Source of the DNA: Pelomyxa schiedti
Lineage: Eukaryota > Protista > Evosea
Length of the DNA: 28,800 bases
Direction: 5' to 3'
Assembly: GCA_020536535.1 (NCBI GenBank)
Contig: JAHLWZ010000516.1
Span: forward strand, 1 to 28,800
The notes beneath the pieces were generated by a model that worked only from the letters and a program-made list of their open reading frames with translations, had not been told where the DNA came from and made no database searches. Of this stretch, positions 7,953-28,416 are shown one piece after another. Position numbers and translations under genes: made by a program. Positions within the stretch are counted from its first letter, which is position 1; every line of letters begins with the position of its first letter.

Positions 7953-9307
7953 AATTGTTCCTCCCGTTGGTTCTCGCTGTAGCTTTAGAACTGCTATTCT
8001 AACCGACAGATACTCGTATCTGCTAAACAGAAACTCAAACGAGAGATGTACACTCTCAAATGTCCTGGGACAATTGCCAGCACAATATACTGCGTGTTCT
8101 GGGTCACTGTCTCAGATTGAGGATTATGAATCATTAACATCTCTTCAGTTGCGCTCAATCTCATCGCTTTCGTGACAGGTGAGGAGGTGAGGTGGTGATT
8201 GGCCTTGGTCTCACAATATCTGCTACGACACAGATGACATTCCTGCACTTTGTTGATTGCGCGGCGTTGCTGATTGCACCCGCTTTCGTCATCTACTACG
8301 CCACCGCATTGTATATTTTTTTTTTATTATTTATTAGACTCTGCAACACAGTGTCTGTCTTATCTTGTTGACCAAGGGTTTTTTTTTTTTTTTTTTTTTT
8401 TTTTGAATCAGGGGAGAGGAGAGGGCTGTTGTGCCTTGCTTCTACGGGGTTTTGGGATATGGTGGCACGCAATTAATTAAAGTGTTCCTTTTCTCTCTTT
8501 GTTTTGAATCCAACAACAAAAATCAGATGGTTGTACTCGCAACGTTCATGCCGAGTGTATCTGCCTTCCTTTCTTTCAACGTTTTTCAGGTTAGTTTCCA
8601 GTAACCCAATAAGGTTTTACCCTCACACCCATAAAAAGGAGGTGCTCAAAGTAGTTATATCGTGGTTAGACTTATGTCTAATGGGAGTTGTCCTGTCTAA
8701 TGTTCCAGGGTTAGATTGTCCTTTTCCTGTCTTCTCTCGACACTTATAGTCACGGCAGAAAACACAAGGAATTACGAGTTCTGGGTGTTGGACTTGGATG
8801 GGGTGCTGCTGAGGCCATTGTACTTAGAATTGTGCCTCTATGGATGCGCGCCCGCGCTCCTGAGTGGGATTGGTCCCATTTGTGCTCTGTTCTTGAAGCA
8901 AATTCCAACCTTGTAAGCAACAGTGTAGTTGTTATCACTCTGTAATATCTTGAAGCTTCAAGCTATATGCTTTGCCCAATTGGTTGCAAGATACCAATTG
9001 ATACCCAAGCTGAAGACCGAGAAAGACTCCCGGAAGGAGATTCTCATTGTGATAGCAATTTACACTCTGGTATCTGGTGTTGGAGAAAGGTATCACAAAT
9101 TTACAAACAATTTTCAGCACTCACCACATCCCAAGTTTCTTAAGATTGGCTCTTGGATTGGGCCCCTTCCCCTGCCTATTATTCCATGTTGCTTGTGTTG
9201 GTGCCCTCTGGTACCGTGTCAGACAGACAAAAATGAAAATTTAAGGAACAAAACAAATTTTTGTTTCATTTTTCTTCGGCCGTTTTAAGAGGGCAATCCC
9301 CCACTTG

Positions 9308-11890: not shown

Positions 11891-13021
11891 TTACTCTCCG
11901 GAAAGTACTTGTACCTTAGTGGTTATGAGAAAGAGTAAGCAAGGAAGATGGTGACTCTTCAGTTTCTGTATTTCATCTTCGTGTATTTCGACTTGCGTCA
12001 TGAGTTTTTGTATGAGAGCACTTTGAGTGGATAGCTGATCCAGTAAACGAGAAAAAAACGGTTGAAGTTTCGCAAGATTGCAGCTGGCACAGTGTGCAGG
12101 CAACTCTGACCTTACACCTTTCCAGGAGCAACAGTCTGTGAAACTTCCAGGGCAACGAATAACTTTCATGGGACAAACATTCATTTCATGTTTATCCTGA
12201 TCCAGGGGTGCTATTTTCGAGCCACATCCAAGCCTGCACACTGTTGAACGAGACATCAGTAACTACTTGAGGTTCTGTGCATGTGGAGGGCAATATAAAC
12301 ATTTAAAAAAAGAGCTTAATTGGTAAAACGGGAGGCCATACATATTGGACAACTTGGAATGTGTTCTGTATCCAGTTTGGCTCTGGGAACCAAGACACCG
12401 CAGTTTGGACAGCTTATTGGGATGACAGGGCAAACGGTATCATGCATGCGTTGTTGAGATGGTTTCACCAGTTTATTACATCCATTGATACATTCTGTAC
12501 AAAGGAGAAAGGTTAAGAGACTGGAGCAAAAAACTTTGAGTGCTGAACCAATGGGGCATTCTGGAGTGTGACTGCCAATTTCAGCTCTTCTGAAAGTCTT
12601 TCTGCACCCAAGGCAATATACCTCAAGGGAATCCAGTTTAGAAAGCATAGTCTTGTTTGTAGCAAGCTGGCTCTCATTTACATCCTCAGTGCAAGTAGGG
12701 CATTCAGATATCTGGAAAAGAAGCCGCCTTAGTTACCAAAAAGATTATTTCCCACACTTCCACATGGACAAAAATCACATAACAGATCCCCTCACAAAAA
12801 CGTGGCCGCACCTCATTTTTGCAGGCAGAGCACAGCCATTCCCCGCAAGAGTGCACAAGAGGAATTGTGGGAGGCAGGTGGCAAACAACGCACAAACGAG
12901 GGAAGCTGCTAGCATTCACGTACTCGTACGACGCCCCTGCACCTCCGCCTCCTCCTGAGGAGAACAAGGATGGCAAGGATGACAGGTGCGCGTGGTGATG
13001 CTTCCTGTCTGAGGTTAACAT
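11891..13021 (-). CDS. TRAF-type zinc-finger protein with a degenerate N-terminal RING, a coiled coil and a hydrophobic C-terminal tail, three exons, 313 aa
   Basis: The model is complement(join(11891..12240,12330..12711,12812..13021)), 942 nt. Exon 1 ends at ...LCVVCHLPPTIPLVHSCGEWLCSACKNE with a GTGCGG donor. It splices onto a strong cttcttttccag acceptor to give ISECPTCTEDV.... The resulting RING-like motif is C-x2-C-x11-C-x4-C-x2-C-x6-C-x2-C, with Glu where TRAF6 has the conserved His (compare PCGHRFCKAC). Exons 2-3 encode repeated TRAF-type zinc fingers: CLGCRKTF..HTPECP, SCPNCGVLVPRAKLDTEHIPSCPIC, CRLGCGSKIAPLDQDKHEMNVCPMKVIRCPG..CCSWKGVRSELPAHCASC. A coiled coil follows (LQPFFSRLLDQLSTQSALIQKLMTQVEIHEDEIQKLK), and the protein ends HHLPCLLFLITTKVQVLSGE*. 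No MATH domain was found downstream. Confidence 0.7.
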
Positions 13022-13319: not shown

Positions 13320-14096
13320 TCAAAGTGGCAAATACAGGCAAAAGGCGTCGACACCATTGAGGTAGTACCTCTTGAGGCGTTTTACTTTGAGGAACCCAAG
13401 GGATGTGTAGAGTCCCAATGAGCCTTGGTTTGTAACTTCAGTTTCTAGTACAACCTCGTCACACTTGTCCTCTAGCATTCTGCTTATTACGGATTTGACA
13501 AGAGCCGACCCTAAAATAGATGGTTGTTGGGAATCGTAAACAATTGTATGGCGATAAGTCAAACCTATTCCTTGCTTTCTCCAAGCTTTATCTACAGCAA
13601 GCATTGCAATATACCCTCTCATGGTGTCACGTTTAGATCTATCAAGTTTGCACACAATAGCACCAACACACTTGCCTGTTTGCTTGTCTCTAGCCTTCAT
13701 TGATTAGATTTTGTTTACCCCATAACGCAAACTACCAAAAAAACCAAGATTTACATACAAAAAAAAAAAAAAAAAGAGAAAGAGTAAGAAACAAACCAAC
13801 AAACACAATGAAGGCCAGTTGTGTATGAAATATCTATATGTGAACACAGAGTAGGGCTCGCTGAGCTCCAGCTCCATCAGGGCCATGATCTCCCCGAGGT
13901 CCATGTCGTCCCTGTACGCGTCGATGCGCCACATCGCGCCAGCCATCCTCGCCGCGTCGGCCGCGGCAGCCGCCTCCATCTGCATGCGCCTCTGCCTCGC
14001 CAGCTCCTCCGCCCTGCCCCCCTCGCCCCCGTTGCTGTGATCGTGGTGGTGGGCCCCCGCCCCGCTCCCGTGCTCATGGCCGCACCCGCACGACAT
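13320..14096 (-). CDS. NAA30: N-alpha-acetyltransferase 30 (NatC catalytic subunit, Mak3)-like GNAT acetyltransferase, two exons, about 224 aa
   Basis: The model is complement(join(13320..13694,13797..14096)). Exon 1 has a G/H/A-rich N-terminus, then [43 protein letters not shown] with a GTTTGT donor. Exon 2 reads [106 protein letters not shown]. This is nearly collinear with human NAA30: [24 protein letters not shown]...[10 protein letters not shown]...[10 protein letters not shown]...GIG...DEVVLETE...[15 protein letters not shown]. The intron contains an A18 run (13758-13775), which is a polypyrimidine tract on the coding strand. Confidence 0.85.
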
Positions 14097-17752: not shown

Positions 17753-20596
17753 TTATGTAAGTGACACGGTTTGGAAGAGTGAGGTGTTTACCCGAATTTG
17801 TTGTCCAGTGGCTCCTGCTTTAGTACCAATCAATTGGTAAACGTGAGTTACTGTGGTTTTGTAGCCTCGTAGTATTACAGTGTCAACCCAGGCGCACACG
17901 AACTGGTCTTTGACAGTTCTAGTTGTGTCAGTGTACTACAAGAATAACAACGAAATACCGGTAAGTTTCTCCTGAAATGAGAGGTGTTAGGCTGTTAACT
18001 TTGCCAAGTTGCTCCAACCGAGAGGCAATATTTGCAGTATTTCCACACACTGTTCATAAAAAGTTACACAGGAGGGTAAGAGTAAAAAAAATCGACCTGT
18101 ATAATTTATTCTGTCAGGGCAGCCGATATTGCCCACAAGTAGAACCCCTGTGTGAATTCCTACTCTTATTTCTATGCCGGGCATTCCTCTGCTTGCCCAA
18201 ATCTGATTCAAATGTTCCAGCTCCCGCATAAAATCTACTGCTGTTTTGCATGCCCAAAATTCCTGCTCCTCAATTTCTTCAGGAGCTCCCCAAATGGCCA
18301 TAATGCAATCACTTTTCACAATTAAGTTACATTTCGTTGTGTTCAAAGTAGAAAAAGTACCCAATGTACTTGTCAATGGTACCGTGGTTCTGATGAATGA
18401 TTACTGTGAAACCCTCCAGCCATTCATTTAGCAAAGCAACAACAGAATGACGGGGAAGCGACTCAGAAAGAGTTGTGAATCCCTTTTCAGAATTATGTTT
18501 TGTCCATGGGGTAAGGTATACCTTGATGTCACAAAACAGAACTGTCATACGTCGCTGCTCCATGCCAAGAAGACTTGAACCAATAGGTTTGTGCATTACA
18601 TCCAGAACCACCTTTCGTGGGATATACTTAGTCAAAGCAATTATTCCTATGTGGTAATGAAATTTTCAGAAATCCTGCTGGAAACCAACCAGATTTGAGT
18701 TGGGCAAATCTGGCATGTATTTCCCTCATCTCAGTCAACATAGGCGGACTTCGGGTGCCAGTAAAATCGAGATGTGTTATGGACCTCATATCTCTCTCGA
18801 GACTTTTCAGTGGCCTCGAAACACAAAGAGAGAATAGCAAGGCCAAACCTGCACACGATTAGGAACATATTGGTAAAATTGCGTACCTAGGCATGCAGCA
18901 CAAATTACACAACACAGAACGAGGGTCAATATGTCTGGTTGCATTTTTTCCCCTTGGTAAACAACCACAACACCCCAATTGATCCCACATTCCATTTGGA
19001 GGGGTGTGACTGCCATAACATGTGAGCCTGATATCCACGCCGTGTATTCATCTTCGACCCAAGAGATTGTGTGGGAATTGTAAAAGGAAACGGCGTCCTG
19101 TATTAGCCAGTGTTGTACATCAGATACAGGCAGGACTTGGTTATTCTCATCATATAGTTGTACGTCGGGGCTTTATTTCTAGTTAGAAGGCGTTTTCTAT
19201 GTCTTTCTTATTACCTACTGCAGCCAACAACTAAACCATCCTGGGTTATGATGAAGGCTATTGAGTTCTCAGGCAGTGGAATTGCTGTAAACATCACATT
19301 AATTGCTCCTACGATATAGTCCATGCCAGATACTGCAATCAGGTATCCAGTGTTATCGCGTACTGCTAGGCTGTGACTGATATAGGTTATTCCACTGATC
19401 GAAGAGGTGTACATGTCTGTCCAGCATTTTTGAGGGCCAGCTATTTCAGGAATGTTGGTGAGTGGACCACTTGGTCTTTATTACCTGGGTCACTAACAAT
19501 GGTGTACCATGGTTTTCCAGTGCCTCCATAGTTGTCTTTGCACCAGTTTGAAGAACCAGTCCATTGACCCTTGAGGTCTGAAAGAAATACTGTCAGGAAA
19601 TGGAATGATACTAGAAAAGAAGTACTGGTGGAGAGTTCACACTCGGTTCCATTGTTAAACCCCCTCCAGTAACCTGTCACATTATCCTATAATTGGTAAA
19701 TTTCACTTGAGACAGTGGTTGGCACACATATCGGATATGACCATATATTACACCAGGCTGGGTGAAAGTTATCCAAACAGCGCTGACTGGCCACCCATAA
19801 AAGTCTCCTACGTTTCCGTCAGATACAGAAGGGAGCTGGGAAGGTGATTACCATACAGACTATTGTTAAGAGTTACTTGGTCCGTTTGGGAAAGTACCTT
19901 TTTTTTTTTTACTTAGGTGAACGTGATGAAGAGAGGAGTGGAGGGAACACACCCCAGAAAGAACTTTTTGTTTATTGATAGCTACCACTGTCTCGGCGGT
20001 AGTAAGTTGCTGCTTCGCAGAAAGTCGAAGGCTTTGAGCATGTGAAAGTGCTCTGGCTGAAGTGATGGTGTCCGCCCAGCGATTTGTAGATACAAAGCTC
20101 TGGAGTAAAATAAAAGAAATCTGATTAGACCAAAGGGAACAGAAGCGGAAATAAAGGGAGGGAGGGAGAGAGAGATGAAAGGCACCATGGCCAAAGCTGT
20201 GATCGTTGGGAGAATGGCCGCGGTGGCGACCAAAAAAAACAAAACTACAACAAACGAGACGATCTTTTTGTGGAACCAATGGGCCGTCCTCTTGGGGAAA
20301 CTTTTTCGGCGGGACGGCCTGTCTGACGCCGAGAAGTCTACGTTTGAGTGGTCCATGTCGAGCACGAGCTCGGATTCACTCCACTGCACTTTCTGAATGT
20401 GCACGGGGGCAACTGTAAAGTCGCTGCCTCCCGTAACTGCGATCTTGCCCTCTGCTTCGTCGGCTACTTTGCCTGAACGCATGAGCACAAGCCCACCGGT
20501 GGTTTTTTTTTTTGTTCTTTTGCCGAACTTGTTGTTCGCTTTTTTCTGAGTTTTCTCCTTGGGAGGGAAAGATTGTTCGTGGCCTGTTGAAGACAT
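17753..20596 (-). CDS. Receptor-type class III adenylate/guanylate cyclase with an extracellular Cache-like sensor domain between two transmembrane segments (more than 10 exons)
   Basis: Exon 1 is 20186..20596 (MSSTGHEQSFPPKEK...basic cytoplasmic N-terminus, then TM1 IVSFVVVLFFLVATAAILPTITALAM, donor GTGCCT, pyrimidine-rich intron). Exon 2 is 19913..20099 (SFVSTNRWADTITSARALSHAQSL...). The exons within 19211-19680 encode a Cache-like fold: ...DNYGGTGKPWYTIVSDP | AGPQKCWTDMYTSSISGITYISHSLAVRDNTGYLIAVSGMDYIVGAINVMFTAIPLPENSIAFIITQDGLVVGCS. This matches the PWY...YT...G.lIaV.G.D...I motif pattern of dCache/sCache domains. TM2 is within 18807..19016 (MQPDILTLVLCCVICAACLG). The cyclase catalytic domain is split over exons in 17987-18635: TVLFCDIK|GFTTLSESLPRHSVVALLNEWLEGFTVIIHQNHGTIDKYIG|DCIMAIWGAPEE...IRVGIHTGVLLVGNIGCPDRINYTG|(V)CGNTANIASRLEQLGK.... 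The terminal exon runs about 17753-17907 (…DQFVCAWVDTVILRGYKTTVTHVYQLIG...*). The exact exon coordinates are unresolved. Confidence 0.75.
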
Positions 20597-20780
20597 AGAA
20601 TTTTTTAGGTAGTTAAGATCAACACGACGCACAACTCAACTCACGGTTGTGGACATTGTAGAAGTGACAATTCCCGGGGACCCTAAAATAGCCTGGACTC
20701 CGAAAAAATTGCTTTTTTTGGGCTTGGTAAAGTAAATGTGAACCAACTGCTGTTTGTTAAGATGAAAAAGTTTCTTTGGA

Positions 20781-22370
20781 CTAGAGTAGTGCCGCGAGAA
20801 TGTTCTTGATCTCAGCCTTGCCAATGTTTCCCTCTGTAGCTAGGTGTGCATCCTTAAGGGTCTCGACGATTGCCTCGAACTTGTCATCAGTTAGGCCGTA
20901 CTGTGAAAGCCTGGTGTGTACACCAAGGCTCTTGAAAAACTCCTCCACAAAGACAATAGCTTGTTCTGCAGCATCCGCTCCCTGTGTTTTGTTTTTCTTT
21001 AGGTGGAGAATAGAGGCCTTAAAGGTGCGTACGTGGTAGTTGAAAACGCGCTCTGCCATTTGAGTGTACTTGTTCCTCCTCAGAGACAGTTGGTGCTTCA
21101 TTACTACAAAGCAGTGAGAGATATCACAAGATTACACCGACTCACTAGCAGGAATTGTGAGAGCCAAAGTTTGCGCATGGTCCAAGCCGTACTGAGCAGT
21201 CATAACGTGCCCTTTACACAGCGTTAGGATACCAAACTACTCTTTGTTACATACCAATAGCATGTCCGGCCCAGCAAGGCTTGACACCGGAGGAAATGAG
21301 GCCATTGAGAGCGGAACTCGCGCACCACATAAAATCGGCTGCAGCAGCATAACTAATTCTGGTTTAATTTGTAGGATTTGTCGAGGAGTGCTTACTCCTG
21401 TCGTTGAGCCATAACAGTGGGTGCAACTTCAATTAAAGACTTTAGAATAGCCTCTGCCTGTCTGTCCTGAAGACGTCCCATTTGATAATGCCCCAAGTAC
21501 TGCTCAAGAACATGAACAAACGAGTCAATGAGCCCATTAGCAAGTTGCCTGCGGAGGTTGGAGAATCATTCAGCAGAGGAAAAACGCACCTTGGTGGAAT
21601 GGAGAAGGTAACTGTGGGGTCAAGAATACTGAAGACCGGGAAGCAAGACGGATGGGCAAATGGTATTTTGCGTTTAGTTGCGAGATGAGAGACAACTGAG
21701 CCTTCATTGTATTCGCTCCCTGCTGCTGGCAAAGTCAAAACAACACCAATGGGGCACTAAAAGGAAAGTGATTGAACGTCCTGGAATTACATTTCATACC
21801 TTCGCATGGGGTTCATACGCTTTCTCATTGGGGAACCCAAAGCCCCAGTGCACGGGAATGTCATACGGATCGTCCGAGGCGGTCCAATTCATGGCACAAG
21901 TGATGTACTTGCAAGCTGCAAAATGACCAGTAAGAAGATCAACAAACAGATAAGGCGTTACCATCAATAACACTCCCACCACCAACTGCAAGAAGGAAGT
22001 TAACGTTGTTCGTTTTCGCAAGAGCAACTGCCTTCATGCATGTCTAAAACAAATGTCAACCCCACTTTCTGTTTTTAATAATAACTTCATATTAAATGGG
22101 TACCTCGTGGGAGGGATTTGGCTCAATACCGCCAAATTCACAAACAGGTGTCACAGCAGCTGTAACCTAATGTTATTTAAAATGAGCAAGACCAACGAAA
22201 TGGGAAAAAAACTTCAGAGACACCTGAGCATAAATGCCATTTGCTTTAATGCTACCACCGCCATAGACCAACATCACACGCGAGTCTGTGGGCACCAAAG
22301 TGCTCAGTTTGGCAATCTGACCACGGCCAAACACGATCCTGGTGGGGCTGCATAGAACGAAGTTGTTCAT
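20781..22370 (-). CDS. YqhD-type iron-containing NADPH-dependent alcohol/aldehyde reductase (Fe-ADH family), nine exons, 406 aa
   Basis: The model is complement(join(20781..21103,21146..21211,21255..21358,21396..21548,21590..21756,21800..21915,21962..22043,22104..22166,22224..22370)), 1221 nt with all phases consistent. The N-terminus MNNFVLCSPTRIVFGRGQIAKLSTLVPTDSRVMLVYGGGSIKANGIYAQ is nearly identical in pattern to E. coli YqhD MNNFNLHTPTRILFGKGAIAGLREQIPHDARVLITYGGGSVKKTGVLDQV. Further collinear blocks: EFGGIEPNP; VNFLLAVGGGSVIDG; DPYDIPVHWG; VLTLPAAGSEYNEGSVVSHLATKRKIPFAHPSCFPVFSILDPTVTFSIPPRQLANGLIDSFVHVLEQY (YqhD VLTLPATGSESNAGAVISRKTTGDKQAFHSAHVQPVFAVLDPVYTYTLPPRQVANGVVDAFVHTVEQY); DFMWCASSALNGLISSGVKPCWAGHAIGHVMTAQYGLDHAQTLALTIPA; AERVFNY...FFKSLGVHTRLSQYGLTDDKFEAIVETL. 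Donors are GTGTCT, GTACCC, GTAACG, GTATGA, GTGCGT, GTAAGC, GTATGT and GTGAGT. Confidence 0.85.
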
Positions 22371-22820
22371 TTTTACTCAACACAAAGCGCGGGGATTTTT
22401 GGCTATCGGGGAGCTTGTTCAGGGTTTTTTTGTTTTTTTGTGCGCCACGGCACTTGTTTTCTGTGATTGATCGTTTGGGGATTTGAAGCTGGGGGGGGCC
22501 GGTAAAAATTCGTTGTGAGAAGTGTACACTTTGCAGTTGCGAAGTTCAACCCTCTCCCAATCAATAACTGCTAGAGAAGACTTCAGTCTCTCCGTCTGCA
22601 GCAAGCACATGTGCGTGAGCGTTGCTCAGAAGGGAGCTATTGAGAGTGGAACCACCTTCTCTGAGTGGAAGAAATATCAAGGAGCAGGGTGCACACTTCA
22701 AAATCTAGACGGCGACATCAAAGCTACGAGAAAAACTTTTGATCTCCCAGGCGTGCCAATCACTTTCACTTTTAATTTGACATCGCGCAGGCCTCACGCG
22801 ATCTTCTAGTTGTAAGGACT

Positions 22821-23313: not shown

Positions 23314-25449
23314 AAAAAGTGAGCTTCGTCTTCGAGTTTATCCGTCTCTCTTGAATTCTAATTCGCAAGACCGAGTTTGTGTAAGCTTGACTGCTGTCCC
23401 TCTGGGAGCAATAGGAAGATATGAGGTAGGTTCTTCCATCTTATTCCTAACTACCCTCATCTTATTTAGGTTTATGTTGCTGCAGCTGTATTTATAGTTA
23501 TGTTCGTACTTGTATCTGTTGAGGTGTGCAACAGAACGTTGGTAGCATTATTTGGCGTTATGACTCTTTTTTGCTTTGTGTGGGCTTTTGAAGGTCAGAA
23601 GCGATCCTCTTTCTTCATTATTAATTTTCACAAAGAACTTCCAACGTTGGAGGAAATGTCCAGCTGGCTAGACTGGAACACTCTTGTTCTCCTCCTTTCT
23701 ATGATGATGCTTATAAGTGTGTTCTCACAAACCGGGGCATTTGAATATGTTGCATGGGCAACAGTTAGGATATGCGCACGTCAAACTTCCATTGCGCCAT
23801 GCAATTGTGGGAGTATTTTCTCTTCCCGCCACAAGTGGAGCATTTTAATTGCTATTGGCACTTTGACTGCTATCGCTTCTGCCTTCTTGGATAACTGTAC
23901 AACTGTATTACTATTTGGTCCTATTTCAGTGAGAATTGCAGGACTTTTACACTGTAGTCCAAAGCCTTTTCTTATGTACTAATCCTTCTGATTCCTTTAC
24001 GCTAATGCGGGTTAAAGATCACTAATATACTTCTGTACACTTGGTGGTGCTATGACCCTTGTGGGAGACCCCCCCAAGTAATAGCTTCTTTTTTTTTTTC
24101 CCCCAATACAATTTACCATCTTTGCAGTCTGATAATTGGAAGTAGCTTTAACCTTGGCTTCACTGAATTGTATTTTTTGTGGTCTTTTTTGTTTTTTCCT
24201 CATCATACCAACAGCTTACTTAATTGCATGCCCTGCATAGTCTTCATTTTTCCGTTTGCCTTTCTTTTGATGTACTTTCAATTCAAAGACTTGATCTCTC
24301 CAAAACCTCCAAAGTACAATCCAGTCGTCAATGTGTGTTATTATGTAGGGAAAAAGGTCTCACAATTATATTATTTAGTGGGAAGATGGCTCTCAATATG
24401 ACTCCGAACTGTCTTTGCTTCACCACACCCCCGACAATCTGCCCAGGTTTCTTTCGTTCATTGTAGTAATCTCATTTTTGAATGAAGTCCTTCTTCACCA
24501 TTAAATGACATCCAAAAACGACATTCGAATTGTACTTCCCCGAGTAAATCCGAAGAGACCTCTGTTCACTTTGACATTATTTTGGAGGGCTCTGCGAGTC
24601 CCACTACTACATGTAAGACTTTCCCTATATGCAACAAGTTAACCGTAATCAATCGGAAGCTTATATACGCGACAAAAGGAAATTGTGCATTTGCAGCATC
24701 GTCCTATGCCTGGTCTTGCTTGGATTCCTACTAGAACCACTAACTGGGCTGAGTCCTCCTTATGTCTCCCTTGCTGGAGCTGCTGTATGAGAGTATATGT
24801 TTCTATTTTTAACTCTTTACTAGGTAGTTCTGTTACTTTGCTCTCCAAAAGATATCACTGACATCCTCGAAAAAGTGGAGTGGCAGACACTATTATTCTT
24901 TTCCTTTTTGTTCATTTTCATCAACTTGACCACCAAACTTGATTTGTCATGGTTTCTTTCACTTGGAGCTGAGAAATTAATATCAGGTTGAAATTCTATC
25001 TCACATGAAGTAGCAAACTCCTTCCAGCCGTTCCTGTGAACGCTCAATTGCCGGTTGCAGTGATTTTCGTATGCTGGACGAGCGGCTTGATAGCTTGCTG
25101 GTGTAACAACATTGCTTATACTGTGGCAGTTATACCTTTGGTGTGCACAGGCTGTACTATGTTCTGAATAACCCAATGTTAGATATTTAATATTGGATAC
25201 AACCCTGAAATATCCTGCGCAGTAGAACCTCTCGCTTTCACCCTGGCACTTGGTGTTGCTCTGAGTGCCAATGGCACCATCATAGCAGCAGCACCAAACC
25301 TCATTCTTGTTGGACTTGCCAACAAATGCGGGCACAAGATTTCCTTCTTCGAGTTCCTCTGCTATGGTTTCCCGTTCCTCGTCATGACACTCGTTCTGTG
25401 CAGTTTTTACTGTTTATTTGTCTATAGCGCTCTTGGGGTATACAGTTGA
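23314..25449 (+). CDS. ArsB/NhaD-superfamily (P-protein/OCA2-like) anion permease, at least 10 exons, 5' end not resolved
   Basis: Exons are approximately 23314..23425 (…VSLTAVPLGAIGRYE, donor GTAGGT), 23470..23593 (VYVAAAVFIVMFVLVSVEVCNRTLVALFGVMTLFCFVWAFE), 23636..23975 (ELPTLEEMSSWLDWNTLVLLLSMMMLISVFSQTGAFEYVAWAT...KWSILIAIGTLTAIASAFLDNCTTVLLFGPISVRIAGLLHCSPKPFLM, with a possible internal intron 23764-23835), 24018..24077 (ISLIYFCTLGGAMTLVGDPPN), 24128..24344 (LIIGSSFNLGFTELYFLW...KPPKYNPVVNVCYY), 24379..24446, 24697..24784 (IVLCLVLLGFLLEPLTGLSPPYVSLAGAA), 24824..24986 (VVLLLCSPKDITDILEKVEWQTLLFFSFLFIFINL...), 25061..25153 (VIFVCWTSGLIACWCNNIAYTVAVIPLVCTG), and 25223..25449 (LEPLAFTLALGVALSANGTIIAAAPNLILVGLANKCGHKISFFEFLCYGFPFLVMTLVLCSFYCLFVYSALGVYS*). 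Hallmark ArsB/NhaD/CitMHS motifs are present: EV.NR.L, DWNT, FEY, SAFLDN.TTVLL, GDPPNLII, EKVEW.TLLFF, NGT.I.A.AN.. This gene converges on MVP. Its stop at 25447-25449 is 182 bp from the MVP stop. Confidence 0.8.
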
Positions 25450-25631: not shown

Positions 25632-28416
25632 TTAGTTGCCAGAGGCAGCAGGAGCAGAGACCAACCCAGAGGCAGTGTTGAACAGGTTGATTGGGCTGTT
25701 GCCGTCGGTGATCATGAGGGACTTGAGGCCGAGGCCGCTGAGCAACTTGGCCTGCATCTCTGGCCCAGCCTGTGCGATTGCCCTGATTGTGTCTGGGCCA
25801 ATGGCAGTGACGACCTCTGCGAACTTGGTGGTCTCAATGTCGGCGAGGTCGCGGGTGCGCTTGACCTCCAGCTCGGTGAGCTTCTGCTTGTGGGCGAGCT
25901 CCATGCCCTGGCGCTTCTTGAGCTCGTCGAGCGCGGCCTTGGCCGTGATGGTGGCGCTGTTGGCGGACAGGTTGGCCTGCTTGACGGCGGCCTCGCCCTC
26001 GATGGTCGACGCGGCGGCGAGGGCGCGGGCCTCGGCGGTGGCCTGGCCGGTGCTCTCGACTGTGGCGCTCTGGGCCTGGAGCTCCAGCAGGGACTTGCGG
26101 GCCCTCTCGGCCTCGGCCTCGTCCGCGAGCTTCTGGCGCTCGAGGCGGCCGCGGGCCTCCTGGTCGAGGCGCTCGGCCTCCTGGCGGGCGGTGGCCTCCT
26201 GGGACTTGGTGGTGATCTCGATGGCGAGCTGGACGGACTTCTGGAGCGAGTCGCGCGTGCGCTGGTCGACGGGCTCGACCGACTGGATATCAATGTTGGT
26301 CACGACCAGGTTGTTGCTGCTGAACACGAGTCGGTCGTTGATCTCTCCGGTCTGCGCGTTGCGGCCAAAGACAGACTCCTGTATGATGTCGACAGAGTGC
26401 TTGTGGAAGGCATCGAATGAGGTGGAGGCGACGACTCCACGGACGCGGGCGCTCAGGGCCTTGCAGAGGTCACCAACTGGGAAAATGTGGTTAGGGAAAA
26501 GAGATAACCTAAAGAGGGGGATAAGGCCTACCAAAGTCTGGTGTGCTGAAGATTCGGCCTGCTGCCTCGTGGTCGCTCTGGTCAACCTCGAAGTGCCAGT
26601 TGTAGCTCAGCTTGAGGGCCAAACGGGCGTGGTCGGCAGTCTCGACGGTGATCTGGTCTGTCATGAAGTCCGGGCCAAGGAACAGAGAAATGGCGTGGAT
26701 TTGGTTGGATTGTTTGGGGACACCACCGCTCATGTTGAGTGTTGTGAAGTGCTCGTCAGGCTGGAGCAAGACAAGATCTGGACCAAAGACTACACGTGAT
26801 TTCTTCTTCTCATAGTCGTACACTTGTACAGCTGCACCGTGAGGTACACGGTAGCTGACAACGCGGGTTGGGTCGCGAGCCTTGGGAGCTGAGGCCTTGA
26901 TGTCATTCTTGTCTCGAGAGGCATCAACCAGAAGGAGCTTATCAACCTCAGAGGGGAGAATCTTTGACCAGAGTTCCTCATTGGGGGCAAGCATGTATGA
27001 AGACCCAATATGAGCGCGAATCTTACCAGTGGTAATATCACGGACATAAATACCCTCATTCTCATCAAGAGGAATAGCCCTCCTCTTCTCAACCACCTCT
27101 ACCTCAACTGGGGGGATGAAGTCACGAGGACCATAGAGCATCCACCTGTCTCCTGGGAGCTTCTTCTCAGATGGGAGAGCGGATCGAGCGCGGAGAAGAA
27201 GTGCCTCCTCCTGAGCAAGCACGTACACATCCTGGATTCCATTCTCAAGCCTCTCACCAGGGTAAAGGAAGAACGAGGCCTCGCCGCGTCTGAGTTCGCG
27301 TGCTCCGAAGCGGGGTCTGCCATCTTGTCCAATTGGATCAACAACAACGCAGAACTGTCGGTTGTTGAGGGTGGTGATCTTGACAATACCCTTGACTTGC
27401 TCGTAGACATCGGTGATGTAGGTCTCGGTGTCTTGCATGGTAACAAGCCACTCCTCACCAGCCTTGCGGACCTTGTTGAAGACATCGGAGAATGTGTTGT
27501 TGGCAACAAGGTGGAGAGCTGTTGTGGGGGTAAGAACCACAGCACTGACGGTTCCTACAATTTCCTCGTTGACGTCTGGGAGGTAGGCACCACTCTTGCG
27601 AACCAACCATTGCTCACCAGCGCATCTCTTCTGGCTAGTGCTGTCAGTGCAGTCGAGGCGGGCGCGGAGCTTAAGGGCCTCGTTCTCCTTGATGATAGTG
27701 CAGTTGACCTTCTCAACAACTGACTCCTCAATTCTGGGGGTATAAGTTGAAGGTCCCTTGAAGAGCCACTCGTCACCAGCAGTGTGGTGAGCGCCAGACT
27801 TCTCATCAAAATCACGAACGGCGCGGAGGCGAAGAGCCTGGTTAGCTTGAACAACAACCATGGGAGTTGGTTTCTCTGCACAATAAGTTAAGAACGAAAC
27901 AAGAAACAGGGAGAAAAAAAGCGAACAAGGAAAGTACCCTTAAGAGACTCCCCGGGGAAGAGAGGGAAAGGATCCTGGGCGAAACGGATTTCCTCATCTC
28001 CGTGTCTGATCTTGGGCATGCCAAACTGATCGAGGATGGGGGTCCCCTTCTTGTCCTTCTCAACTGGGTTGGCAATCATGCAGTAGTTGCGTGGGGGGAC
28101 AGTAATCATAGCCTCTGTTAAAATTCGGTCAACGTTAAACAGCTTTCCCACTAAATTCTTCCAAACAAATAATAAAGTATTCATCGCAAATACGACATCG
28201 AATGTAAATGCCCAAGGACGCTAGTAACGAAGGAGAAAAGGAAAAAAAAGAAAAAAACAAGCAGTAATTAAAAAACAGACCTGGTCCAAGAATGATGTTC
28301 TCATGATCTCTGCGGGTGAAGGTTCGTGGACCGACGACAACGGTGGTGACATTTGTGTTGTTGTCGAAGACGTGGATGTAGTGGTTGGGCTTGATTCGAA
28401 TGACTGACTCGGGCAT
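25632..28416 (-). CDS. MVP: Major vault protein, four exons, 833 aa, complete
   Basis: The model is complement(join(25632..26476,26532..27875,27938..28114,28281..28416)), 2502 nt with all phases consistent. The N-terminus [45 protein letters not shown]|[17 protein letters not shown]... parallels human MVP [61 protein letters not shown]. The long exon 3 carries the MVP repeats (…GEEWLV…[42 protein letters not shown]…[22 protein letters not shown]…[31 protein letters not shown]…[29 protein letters not shown]). Exon 4 carries the shoulder and cap helix (…[51 protein letters not shown]…[47 protein letters not shown]...*). Donors are GTCTGT, GTACTT and GTAGGC. Acceptors are aacag, gtgcag and cccag. 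Confidence 0.95.

Follow-up and report, generated by a model that had tools for sequence, protein, structure and literature searches.

The gene at positions 20781-22370 of the window (the whole stretch of 28,800 nucleotides analysed, from Pelomyxa schiedti contig JAHLWZ010000516.1) is an expressed ten-exon gene of the YqhD/ADH3 type. It probably goes back to one old transfer from bacteria, followed by descent within eukaryotes and by later intron gain and codon adaptation.

Gene structure and transcript

The gene lies on the minus strand. Its ATG starts at 22370 and its TAG ends at 20781, exactly the span at which a preliminary description, made from the sequence without database searches, had placed a gene for an iron-containing alcohol dehydrogenase (Fe-ADH). 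The same description counted eight introns and a product of 406 aa. The cDNA contig L001 (ENA ERZ12420489 NODE_508, 1348 nt) and the GenBank protein KAH3761638.1 correct these figures to nine introns, all GT-AG and 41-60 nt long, ten exons and 387 aa. The spliced coding sequence (1164 nt) is present base for base in the cDNA, and the product is 100% identical over 387 aa to KAH3761638.1, named "aldehyde reductase [Pelomyxa schiedti]". A model of eight introns and 404 aa that retains intron 9 was ruled out by these two records; this intron is in frame and stop-free, so that the open reading frame runs through it and it can be overlooked when no tools are used. For intron 6 an acceptor CTGCAG, 14 nt further on, was discarded since it breaks the frame; the upstream AG restores the frame, in agreement with the cDNA. 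The features are as follows.

20727-22481, minus strand: transcribed region, minimum extent (alignment of cDNA L001 from 22481 to 20727)
22371-22481, minus: 5' UTR (cDNA L001)
20781-22370, minus: CDS with introns (cDNA L001)
20780 to at least 20727, minus: 3' UTR (cDNA L001)
22224-22370, minus: exon 1, aa 1-49, start codon and YGGGS motif (22265-22251) (cDNA)
22167-22223, minus: intron 1, 57 nt, GT-AG, phase 0 (missing from cDNA L001)
22104-22166, minus: exon 2, aa 50-70 (cDNA)
22044-22103, minus: intron 2, 60 nt, GT-AG, phase 0 (cDNA)
21962-22043, minus: exon 3, aa 71-97 plus 1 nt, GGGSVID cofactor-binding motif (21983-21963) (cDNA)
21916-21961, minus: intron 3, 46 nt, GT-AG, phase 1 (cDNA)
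21800-21915, minus: exon 4, aa 98-136, clade-specific insertion WGFGFPNEKAY (aa 121-131, 21847-21815) (splice model, alignment)
21757-21799, minus: intron 4, 43 nt, GT-AG, phase 0 (cDNA)
21590-21756, minus: exon 5, aa 137-191 plus 2 nt, TLPAAGSE..N segment (cDNA)
21549-21589, minus: intron 5, 41 nt, GT-AG, phase 2 (cDNA)
21396-21548, minus: exon 6, aa 192-242 plus 2 nt, metal ligands D200 (21526-21524) and H204 (21514-21512) (alignment)
21353-21395, minus: intron 6, 43 nt, GT-AG, phase 2, acceptor AG at ..AATTAG (frame and cDNA)
21255-21352, minus: exon 7, aa 243-275 plus 1 nt, metal ligand H273 (21264-21262) (alignment)
21212-21254, minus: intron 7, 43 nt, GT-AG, phase 1 (cDNA)
21146-21211, minus: exon 8, aa 276-297 plus 1 nt, H277 (21209-21207), metal ligand H287 (21179-21177) (alignment)
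21104-21145, minus: intron 8, 42 nt, GT-AG, phase 1 (cDNA)
21033-21103, minus: exon 9, aa 298-321 (cDNA)
20982-21032, minus: intron 9, 51 nt, GT-AG, phase 0, in frame, stop-free (missing from L001 and KAH3761638.1)
20781-20981, minus: exon 10, aa 322-387 and TAG stop (cDNA)

The two longer alignments of the cDNA to the genome are free of mismatches. In the first alignment, over the 5' UTR and exon 1, there are a single mismatch and a single gap, and both must be in the UTR because the spliced coding sequence is contained exactly. The 5' start of the cDNA carries what we take to be the end of the SMART template-switch oligo, which puts 22481 near the cap site. Rfam families, tRNA genes and relevant tandem repeats were looked for in and near the gene and none was found.

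The locus is a nuclear, expressed gene in a eukaryotic context. Other genes in the window encode major vault protein, a CitMHS transporter, a GNAT acetyltransferase, TRAF-like zinc fingers and a cyclase. Codon usage is host-like, as had been claimed: relative synonymous codon usage correlates with that of the other window ORFs having Pfam matches (r = 0.57) and hardly at all with that of bacterial homologues (r about 0), and GC3 is 0.50, compared with 0.40-0.58 in two neighbouring ORFs.

Enzyme family and predicted function

Both domains of the family were found above the Pfam gathering score: Fe-ADH (PF00465, E = 1.2e-36, residues 9-183) and ADH_Fe_C (PF25137, E = 5.9e-25, residues 195-385). 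Among solved structures, E. coli YqhD (4qgs/1oj7) is the best match (E = 4e-98), collinear over residues 1-367 with about 48% identity; the N-terminal match string given in the preliminary description proved exact. Butanol dehydrogenases (BDH) follow at 8e-75 to 2.5e-53, the ADHII type (3owo) reaches 2.8e-11 and the FucO/DhaT/AdhE types 1e-13 or weaker. Among NCBIfam models the YqhD equivalog PRK15138 comes top (7.5e-119), the next family scoring 5e-32 and the 4-hydroxybutyrate dehydrogenase (HOT-like) model 3.4e-27. Scores against structures and models thus place the protein outside the HOT/ADHFE1 and ADH4/ADHII types. The score of 397.2 bits falls short of the 645 required by the YqhD equivalog cut-off (NF011717 / PRK15138); the protein is therefore a relative within the YqhD subfamily and not a strict equivalog of enterobacterial YqhD. 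By its sequence it is assigned to the group III metal-dependent ADH, YqhD / butanol dehydrogenase subfamily (CDD cd08187).

The cofactor motifs Y36-G-G-G-S40 and G91-G-G-S-V-I-D97 are present, and are invariant throughout the eukaryotic clade described below. An NADP-type site in the YqhD/BDH subfamily is recognized by GGGSxxD together with an N-terminal YGGGS and no Asp at the FucO/DhaT position 39 (PMC7594077, PMC5125639), and this is the combination found in the Pelomyxa protein. The metal ligands D200, H204, H273 and H287 align with D194, H198, H267 and H281 of YqhD and are invariant in all 30 clade members compared (30/30). The enzyme is predicted to be cytosolic and probably dimeric, holding a divalent metal by these four residues and binding NADPH through the two glycine motifs. 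It would reduce short-chain aldehydes (acetaldehyde, toxic aldehydes) to the alcohols, with a putative role in the fermentation and aldehyde detoxification of an anaerobe. We infer its substrate range, metal and cofactor preference from the motifs and by analogy with YqhD and EhADH3B, an ADH3 enzyme of Entamoeba histolytica.

Compared with E. coli YqhD, the protein is not extended at its N-terminus. It is distinct from Pelo_9085, the Fe-ADH that the Pelomyxa genome paper discusses as a candidate for the mitochondrion-related organelle and that has a long N-terminal extension. Judged by eye, the C-terminus (...AALL) is unlike a peroxisomal PTS1 signal.

A eukaryotic clade with a diagnostic insertion

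The nearest relatives are eukaryotic: an uncultured relative with 63% identity and Mastigella eilhardi with 58%, compared with at most about 53% for bacterial matches. In neighbour-joining (NJ) trees the protein falls in a eukaryotic clade of 60 members (bootstrap 90-94%), which contains Pelomyxa, Mastigella, Mastigamoeba, Entamoeba ADH3 and several intron-poor protists. Most members are metagenome or metatranscriptome sequences, and eukaryotic origin was checked on five contigs; the genes next to such members encode UTP20 and kinases, a CHD helicase, SH3/CS proteins and gelsolin/VHP. All named members and every informative genomic context are eukaryotic. The trees were built without eukaryotic ADHFE1 and yeast ADH4. 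An assignment of the P0036 group (402-423 aa) to parabasalids was dropped, since its relatives included no named parabasalid, nor a named organism of any other kind.

What sets the clade apart is an insertion of about 9 aa, situated after the GGGSxxD motif and before the TLPATGS segment. The segment from D97 to T144 measures 48 aa in Pelomyxa and 42-50 aa in 60/60 clade members (46-50 aa, shortened to 42 in Entamoeba), compared with 36-41 aa in 282 of the 288 outsiders. These columns were left out of the trees. A second signature, 'EQYxG[H/N]' instead of the 'EQYxT[Y]' usual in bacteria, is less uniform: Gly occurs in 43 of the 60 members and Thr in 210 of the 288 outsiders. A profile made from the clade minus the Pelomyxa group gives 548 bits on the query, and a profile of the nearest bacteria 498.

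Placement by maximum likelihood (ML) gave the same picture. The scan was home-written, with a Gonnet-derived rate matrix and four gamma categories, on 36 taxa and 377 columns with a fixed NJ backbone. The entire likelihood weight (1.0) goes to placements within the clade or on its stem, and the best placement outside is 86.5 lnL worse (KH z = 4.3, p = 8e-6, RELL 0/10000). On tree, insertion and profile, the Pelomyxa protein belongs to this eukaryotic ADH3-like clade.

Relationships within the clade are less firm. Pelomyxa and Mastigella group together (NJ bootstrap 87-92%), and the pelomyxids group with Entamoeba (NJ bootstrap 38-56%, RELL 0.72), but their placement on the clade stem or beside the Mastigamoeba half is just 3.2-3.4 lnL worse, a difference that is not significant. 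The Mastigamoeba paralogues stand apart from Pelomyxa and Entamoeba and join the P0004/P0036 lineages (NJ bootstrap 64-80%).

Origin of the gene

The eukaryotic clade is nested 17 nodes deep amid bacterial YqhD-like sequences. Its immediate sister is bacterial, with bacterial neighbour genes (RNase Y, HflX, MmeI), and to some bacteria the eukaryotic clade is nearer than E. coli YqhD is. This nesting points to an old bacterial origin, dating back at least to the divergence of the sampled Archamoebae, with the Pelomyxa copy inherited within eukaryotes. Lateral transfer of EhADH3 from Gram-negative bacteria was already proposed (PMC7594077), and the YqhD/BDH subfamily was earlier listed in Amoebozoa, Parabasalidea and Stramenopiles (PMC5125639). 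We infer the direction and timing as follows: a bacterial YqhD-like gene would have been acquired a single time by an anaerobic eukaryote, in the distant past and no later than the archamoebal radiation, and the Pelomyxa copy would descend from that eukaryotic founder. As for the donor, when bacterial and archaeal genomes were scanned with this one protein as query, only six Bacteroidota loci came up; they were picked by exact peptide patterns and hold no reliable information. The preliminary description had set an old horizontal acquisition against vertical membership of a eukaryotic clade; the evidence favours the two combined, in that order. Simple vertical descent, which it had linked to a broadly distributed eukaryotic Fe-ADH clade, does not agree with a clade confined to anaerobic protists.

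Four other explanations were weighed against old transfer followed by eukaryotic inheritance. That the gene is bacterial contamination or an assembly artefact is refuted, and we give it practically no credence: nine spliceosomal introns are precisely spliced out in an independent cDNA bearing a 5' template-switch oligo, and the flanking genes are eukaryotic, major vault protein among them, even though the genome was obtained by single-cell amplification from a cell harbouring bacteria (PMC8887013, PMC10579272). These bacteria also raise the question of a recent and independent transfer, directly into the Pelomyxa lineage from an endosymbiont, with which Pelomyxa lives (PMC10579272), or from prey, and many bacterial proteins match it at a raw identity (49-53%) much like that of Entamoeba (48-49%). 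Yet the eukaryotic relatives are 58-63% identical, the gene has the eukaryote-specific insertion together with its introns and host-like codons, and all placements of the pelomyxids among bacteria are at least 86.5 lnL worse (KH p <= 1e-5, RELL 0). We regard this explanation as rejected by the insertion and the ML placement, and its probability as very slight.

Vertical descent from the last eukaryotic common ancestor or the mitochondrial endosymbiont, the gene having been lost from almost every aerobic lineage, would suit a clade that is exclusively eukaryotic as far as labelled and that has its own insertion and signatures, as an old eukaryotic family would. It is already disfavoured, and appears improbable, because it requires very many independent losses and because the clade lies so deep within bacterial diversity. 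Moreover, the named members are all anaerobic Archamoebae, the others have eukaryotic neighbours and come in some cases from gut samples, and searches of 5.8 billion proteins and 1.84 billion cluster representatives brought up no sequence of an animal, fungus, plant or aerobic amoebozoan among their best matches. Rather more weight, although still a minor share, goes to transfer between eukaryotes, in which the Pelomyxa lineage, or Archamoebae repeatedly, got the bacterial-derived gene from another anaerobic protist. The Archamoebae do not form one group within the clade, Mastigamoeba going with P0004/P0036 and Pelomyxa plus Mastigella with Entamoeba; descent within Archamoebae may therefore not have been strictly vertical. 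Gene sharing of Entamoeba with other anaerobic protists was proposed earlier (PMC4217692), and 170 transfer candidates of Mastigamoeba are reported to be shared with other eukaryotes (PMC8136499). On the other side, the internal branches are weak, as the small cost of the alternative placements indicates, the P0004/P0036-type lineages could themselves be Archamoebae, and presence of the gene in all four sampled archamoebal genera fits ancestral presence and old paralogy.

Intron gain and significance

Under an old transfer with eukaryotic inheritance, all nine introns would have been gained afterwards, at a density normal for the intron-rich Pelomyxa genome (mean of 7.43 introns per gene; PMC8887013), and codon usage would since have been adjusted to the host. 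Sharing of intron positions among eukaryotic homologues, suggested earlier as a sign of vertical descent, was not observed with the orthologue of Entamoeba invadens, the one orthologue whose genomic sequence was read: it has zero introns. In Mastigamoeba the mRNA spans of the paralogues are 220-470 nt longer than the CDS, which, with a mean intron size of 137 bp in this species (PMC8136499), suggests that these copies have a few introns. The Mastigella sequence comes from a transcriptome only. Scanning metagenomes with P0002, the closest uncultured relative, brought back its own transcript-like contig alone, and no intron-bearing genomic relative. Compared by eye, the nine Pelomyxa introns have no mutual similarity, and an introner-like origin is not indicated.

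The significance of these results is little beyond bookkeeping: the gene is already correctly annotated in GenBank, members of the enzyme family from E. coli and Entamoeba have been characterised, and the ideas that archamoebal ADH3 came from bacteria and that transferred genes gain introns in intron-rich amoebae are both in print. Three modest gains are made. The exon-intron model is corrected and cDNA-proven, with its nine introns. The enzymes of Pelomyxa, Mastigella, Mastigamoeba, Entamoeba and other protists are brought together in one eukaryotic clade with a diagnostic insertion, which implies that the transfer predates the divergence of these lineages. Finally, nine introns against zero is a clean contrast within one family, which can serve to illustrate post-transfer intron gain.

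A wider reading, which we offer tentatively and would not expect to hold, is that the clade is a eukaryote-only YqhD-like subfamily, previously undelimited and marked by the ~9-residue insertion, that spread among unrelated anaerobic protists partly by inter-eukaryote transfer, the introns of its orthologues recording gain in Archamoebae. If true, the counts of nine introns in Pelomyxa, probably few in Mastigamoeba and zero in Entamoeba would form a dated gene-level record of lineage-specific gain, because the founder gene would have been without introns. This wider reading takes in several abundant intron-poor eukaryotes of gut and anoxic habitats.

Comparison with known systems

The closest named relative of the Pelomyxa protein is the Mastigella eilhardi homologue (EukProt EP01105_P003214), with 58% identity. 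Mastigamoeba balamuthi has at least seven paralogues (EP00727 m51a1_g12531, g7510, g8922 and others), which have the same insertion and belong to the same clade, but lie on its opposite side with about 48-51% identity.

E. coli YqhD (PDB 1OJ7, 4QGS), a broad-range NADPH aldehyde reductase, is collinear from Met1 with about 48% identity, and has identical metal ligands and the same NADP-type glycine motifs. Its length of 387 aa is equal to that of the Pelomyxa product. The Pelomyxa protein differs from it by the ~9-aa insertion at 121-131, by a different and slightly shorter C-terminal segment, and by being encoded in an intron-containing gene.

The ADH3 enzymes of Entamoeba histolytica (EhADH3A/EhADH3B, e.g. 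EAL49788.1) are clade-mates of the Pelomyxa protein in both NJ and ML analyses. They have in common with it the domain layout, YGGGS and GGGSxxD, the metal ligands and 'EQYxG[HN]'; identity is 44-49%, and their insertion is shortened (segment of 42 versus 48 aa). EhADH3B is enzymatically characterised, whereas the Pelomyxa protein is known here from its sequence. In recombinant form EhADH3B is dimeric, reduces acetaldehyde and formaldehyde in an NADPH-dependent manner and shows no alcohol oxidation; Ni or Zn activates it (PMC7594077). It is like E. coli YqhD in NADPH-dependent aldehyde reduction with little or no alcohol oxidation, and in being dimeric (PMC7594077); by analogy with the two, NADPH aldehyde reductase activity and a dimeric state may be expected of the Pelomyxa protein.

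As regards introns, genes of bacterial ancestry with introns near the normal density of the host are likewise known elsewhere: in Acanthamoeba castellanii, transferred genes have an intron density broadly comparable to the native 6.2 per gene (PMC4053784), and a basidiomycete alpha-amylase underwent massive intron gains after transfer (PMC3584928). Unlike these cases, the present one offers a contrast within a single family, nine introns in Pelomyxa against zero in Entamoeba. This contrast agrees with the part of PMC4053784 that cites Roy et al. 2006, according to which intron gain is nearly absent from the transferred genes of Entamoeba.

Gene structure and transcript

The reductase gene lies at 22370..20781 on the minus strand. 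Its structure, established by eye and then by scripted assembly, comprises 10 exons separated by 9 introns (41-60 nt, all GT-AG), for a coding sequence of 1164 nt and a product of 387 aa. A protein search found this product 100% identical to the 387-aa KAH3761638.1, "aldehyde reductase [Pelomyxa schiedti]", so GenBank already carries an annotation of this gene. Exact-protein look-up retrieved a 1348-nt ENA contig (ERZ12420489, NODE_508) with an unbroken ORF. Its alignment to the window consists of exon-sized blocks, with zero mismatches in the exons of the two longer alignments, and the spliced coding sequence is present exactly within it. The nine introns therefore all have experimental support, and the gene is an expressed one. 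The contig opens with ...ACGCAGAGTACATGGG, the end of the SMART template-switch oligo, and so represents a full-length cDNA, with the transcript beginning near 22481 and ending at 20727 or beyond. In the 5' UTR (window 22371-22481, contig 19-130) cDNA and genome differ by one mismatch and one single-base gap, which probably fall in A-rich runs and stem from a homopolymer error in one of the two single-cell assemblies.

The coordinates in the preliminary description were exact, but its count of eight introns and 406 aa was off by one intron and about 19 residues, because the following intron had been kept:

21032-20982, minus strand: intron 9, 51 nt, in frame and stop-free

The mechanical ORF list runs through this intron uninterrupted. 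A model retaining it has 404 aa and was rejected, as the cDNA has the spliced coding sequence instead; the spliced form is the sole form seen (one cDNA contig). Retention would add 17 residues (VRTFKASILHLKKNKTQ) in a loop whose length varies throughout the family. For intron 6, an acceptor 14 nt further downstream was rejected: it breaks the frame, which the upstream AG restores.

Protein family and predicted function

The product contains the Pfam domains Fe-ADH and ADH_Fe_C. Among solved structures the best match by far is E. coli YqhD (E = 4e-98, residues 1-367), collinear from Met1 as had been proposed; next come butanol dehydrogenases (1e-75 to 1e-53), then FucO, DhaT and AdhE types (no better than 1e-13). 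The top NCBIfam match is the YqhD model PRK15138, with 397 bits, the equivalog cut-off of 645 not being reached. The proposed YqhD-type assignment holds: the protein belongs to the subfamily without being a strict equivalog. Its metal ligands D200, H204, H273 and H287 are all in place, as are the GGGSxxD motif and the second motif, YGGGS, that characterises YqhD-type enzymes using NADPH. The protein is without N-terminal extension and its C-terminus (…AALL) is, by eye, unlike a peroxisomal PTS1 signal; a cytosolic location is predicted. A characterised relative, EhADH3B of Entamoeba, is a dimer that reduces acetaldehyde and formaldehyde with NADPH and does not oxidise alcohols (PMC7594077); by analogy the Pelomyxa enzyme is predicted to carry out the same chemistry.

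A clade of eukaryotic reductases

The nearest sequences to the query are those of an uncultured relative (63%, transcript-like) and of the fellow pelomyxid Mastigella eilhardi (58%); all others are at most about 53% identical. In a neighbour-joining tree of 348 full-length homologues (379 columns, gamma distances, rooted on a distant subfamily member) the query falls inside a 60-member clade with 90-94% bootstrap (94% in an earlier version with 251 sequences). Its named members, anaerobic Archamoebae without exception, include Pelomyxa, Mastigella, Entamoeba (ADH3) and three of the at least seven paralogues of Mastigamoeba balamuthi (EukProt EP00727); no named bacterium occurs inside it in the 348-homologue tree. 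Three M. balamuthi genes (m51a1_g7510, g7511 and g7514) are clustered within about 10 kb of one scaffold (293-303 kb) and g12531/g12532 are adjacent, which indicates local tandem amplification.

On four of five contigs read for members from unnamed lineages the neighbouring genes are plainly eukaryotic; the fifth (L013) carried no informative neighbour. The clade gene adjoins a 3374-aa UTP20 and protein kinases on contig L015 (8001-9272), a chromodomain CHD helicase on L016, from a Hadza gut metagenome (8001-9203), SH3/CS-domain proteins on L004 (4816-5979 and 6275-6733), and a gelsolin/villin-headpiece protein and a papain-type peptidase on L018 (126-1316). These close relatives, from several abundant unnamed eukaryotic lineages, are intronless genes. 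The contig with the uninterrupted UTP20 has 70% GC and a GC3 of 94%, and one of the four carries an apparent second, tandem Fe-ADH copy at its end. About 45 clusters of group P0036 consist of transcript-like contigs of 1.3-1.4 kb. No named organism was found to match the intronless lineages or this group.

The clade is supported independently of the tree. Its members carry an insertion between GGGSxxD and TLPATGS, the columns of which were left out of the tree matrices: this segment measures 46-50 aa in the clade and 42 in Entamoeba, versus 36-41 in 282 of 288 outsiders. They also read "EQYxG[H/N]" at a site where "EQYxT[Y]" prevails among bacteria. A profile HMM of the clade minus pelomyxids scores the query at 548 bits, against 498 bits for one of the nearest bacteria. 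When the clade profile was searched against a 5.8-billion-protein database, a gap in the scores emerged: most members scored 573-668 bits and bacteria 536 or less; a second Entamoeba ADH3 paralogue group, outside the tree sampling, scored 530-543 bits, and no further named eukaryotes were found by this search.

Likelihood placement used our own code (Gonnet-derived rate matrix, four gamma categories with alpha 0.92, 36 taxa, 377 columns) on a neighbour-joining backbone with optimised branch lengths. With the pelomyxid clade regrafted on each of the 63 backbone branches, all likelihood weight falls within the eukaryotic clade or on its stem. The best bacterial placement is 86.5 lnL units worse after full re-optimisation (KH z = 4.3, p = 8e-6; RELL 0 of 10000). 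The pelomyxids fit best as sister of the group that includes Entamoeba (RELL 0.72); placing them on the stem of the clade or beside its Mastigamoeba half is just 3.2-3.4 lnL units worse and is not rejected.

Genomic context and codon usage

The window is eukaryotic nuclear DNA, with fragmented ORFs throughout; no Rfam families, tRNA genes or relevant repeats were found in it. Its other recognizable features are:

25632-27861, minus strand: major vault protein gene, with Vault repeats and shoulder domain
23500-23982, plus strand: exon of a CitMHS-type transporter (citrate/arsenite-type family)
11891-12648, 13320-13700 and 17987-18376, all minus strand: ORF fragments matching a TRAF/Sina-type zinc finger (weakly), GNAT acetyltransferase and adenylate/guanylate cyclase

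The vault protein gene, which takes up the window's GC-rich part, where GC reaches 61%, has at least one intron between its two long ORFs. The CitMHS exon lies upstream of the reductase gene in the opposite transcription direction; since its family is mostly prokaryotic, it may be another gene of bacterial ancestry. The three ORF fragments are ordinary eukaryotic neighbours. The reductase gene has a GC3 of 0.50 (0.40 and 0.58 in two neighbouring ORFs) and introns of 38% GC. In relative synonymous codon usage it correlates with the pooled host ORFs (r = 0.57) and not with bacterial homologues (r about 0), in agreement with the host-like usage noted earlier.

Origin and age of a probable transfer

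The eukaryotic context, GC3 and codon usage together exclude contamination and recent transfer. Rooting puts the eukaryotic clade 17 nodes deep within sequences of Bacteroidota, Verrucomicrobiota, Planctomycetota, Sumerlaeota and Proteobacteria, many of which leave E. coli YqhD further out. The clade's immediate sister group has a typical bacterial neighbourhood (RNase Y, HflX, an MmeI-type restriction-modification gene). The preliminary description, which weighed an old acquisition followed by intron gain against vertical descent, proves half right, in that the gene came ultimately from bacteria, and long ago, but its immediate ancestry is eukaryotic. The broadly distributed eukaryotic Fe-ADH clade that simple vertical descent would predict was not borne out, the clade being confined to anaerobic protists; animal, fungal, plant and aerobic amoebozoan sequences were absent from the best matches of every search. 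The data are most simply read as one transfer from bacteria to eukaryotes before Pelomyxidae, Entamoebidae and Mastigamoebidae diverged. The clade clearly shows later duplication, and the gene may also have spread between eukaryotes. A single old transfer fits published work: lateral transfer was suggested for the YqhD/BDH subfamily, already listed from Amoebozoa, Parabasalidea and Stramenopiles (PMC5125639), a bacterial origin was proposed for EhADH3A and EhADH3B (PMC7594077), and Entamoeba is the immediate sister for 34 Mastigamoeba transfer candidates (PMC8136499).

Probable intron gain compared with known transferred genes

As the bacterial founder gene was intronless, all nine introns would have been gained after the transfer. 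Nine introns in a 1.16-kb coding sequence are nothing unusual in P. schiedti, where the mean is 7.43 introns per gene and 98.4% of the boundaries are GT-AG (PMC8887013). The Mastigamoeba genes span 220-470 nt more than their coding sequences; with introns averaging 137 bp (PMC8136499), this would correspond to about two or three per gene. A metagenome scan with the protein of the uncultured relative found no genomic relative with introns. This is an ordinary metabolic gene, already annotated, with an evolutionary history of a known kind; the small new element is that the insertion delimits the eukaryotic ADH3-like clade, together with the intron contrast inside it. Host-like intron density in transferred genes is documented in Acanthamoeba (PMC4053784) and basidiomycetes (PMC3584928), and intron acquisition is nearly absent in transferred genes of Entamoeba according to Roy et al. 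2006, as cited in PMC4053784. The ADH3 of Entamoeba invadens, a single ORF of 1149 nt, has 0 introns, whereas its Pelomyxa orthologue has 9.
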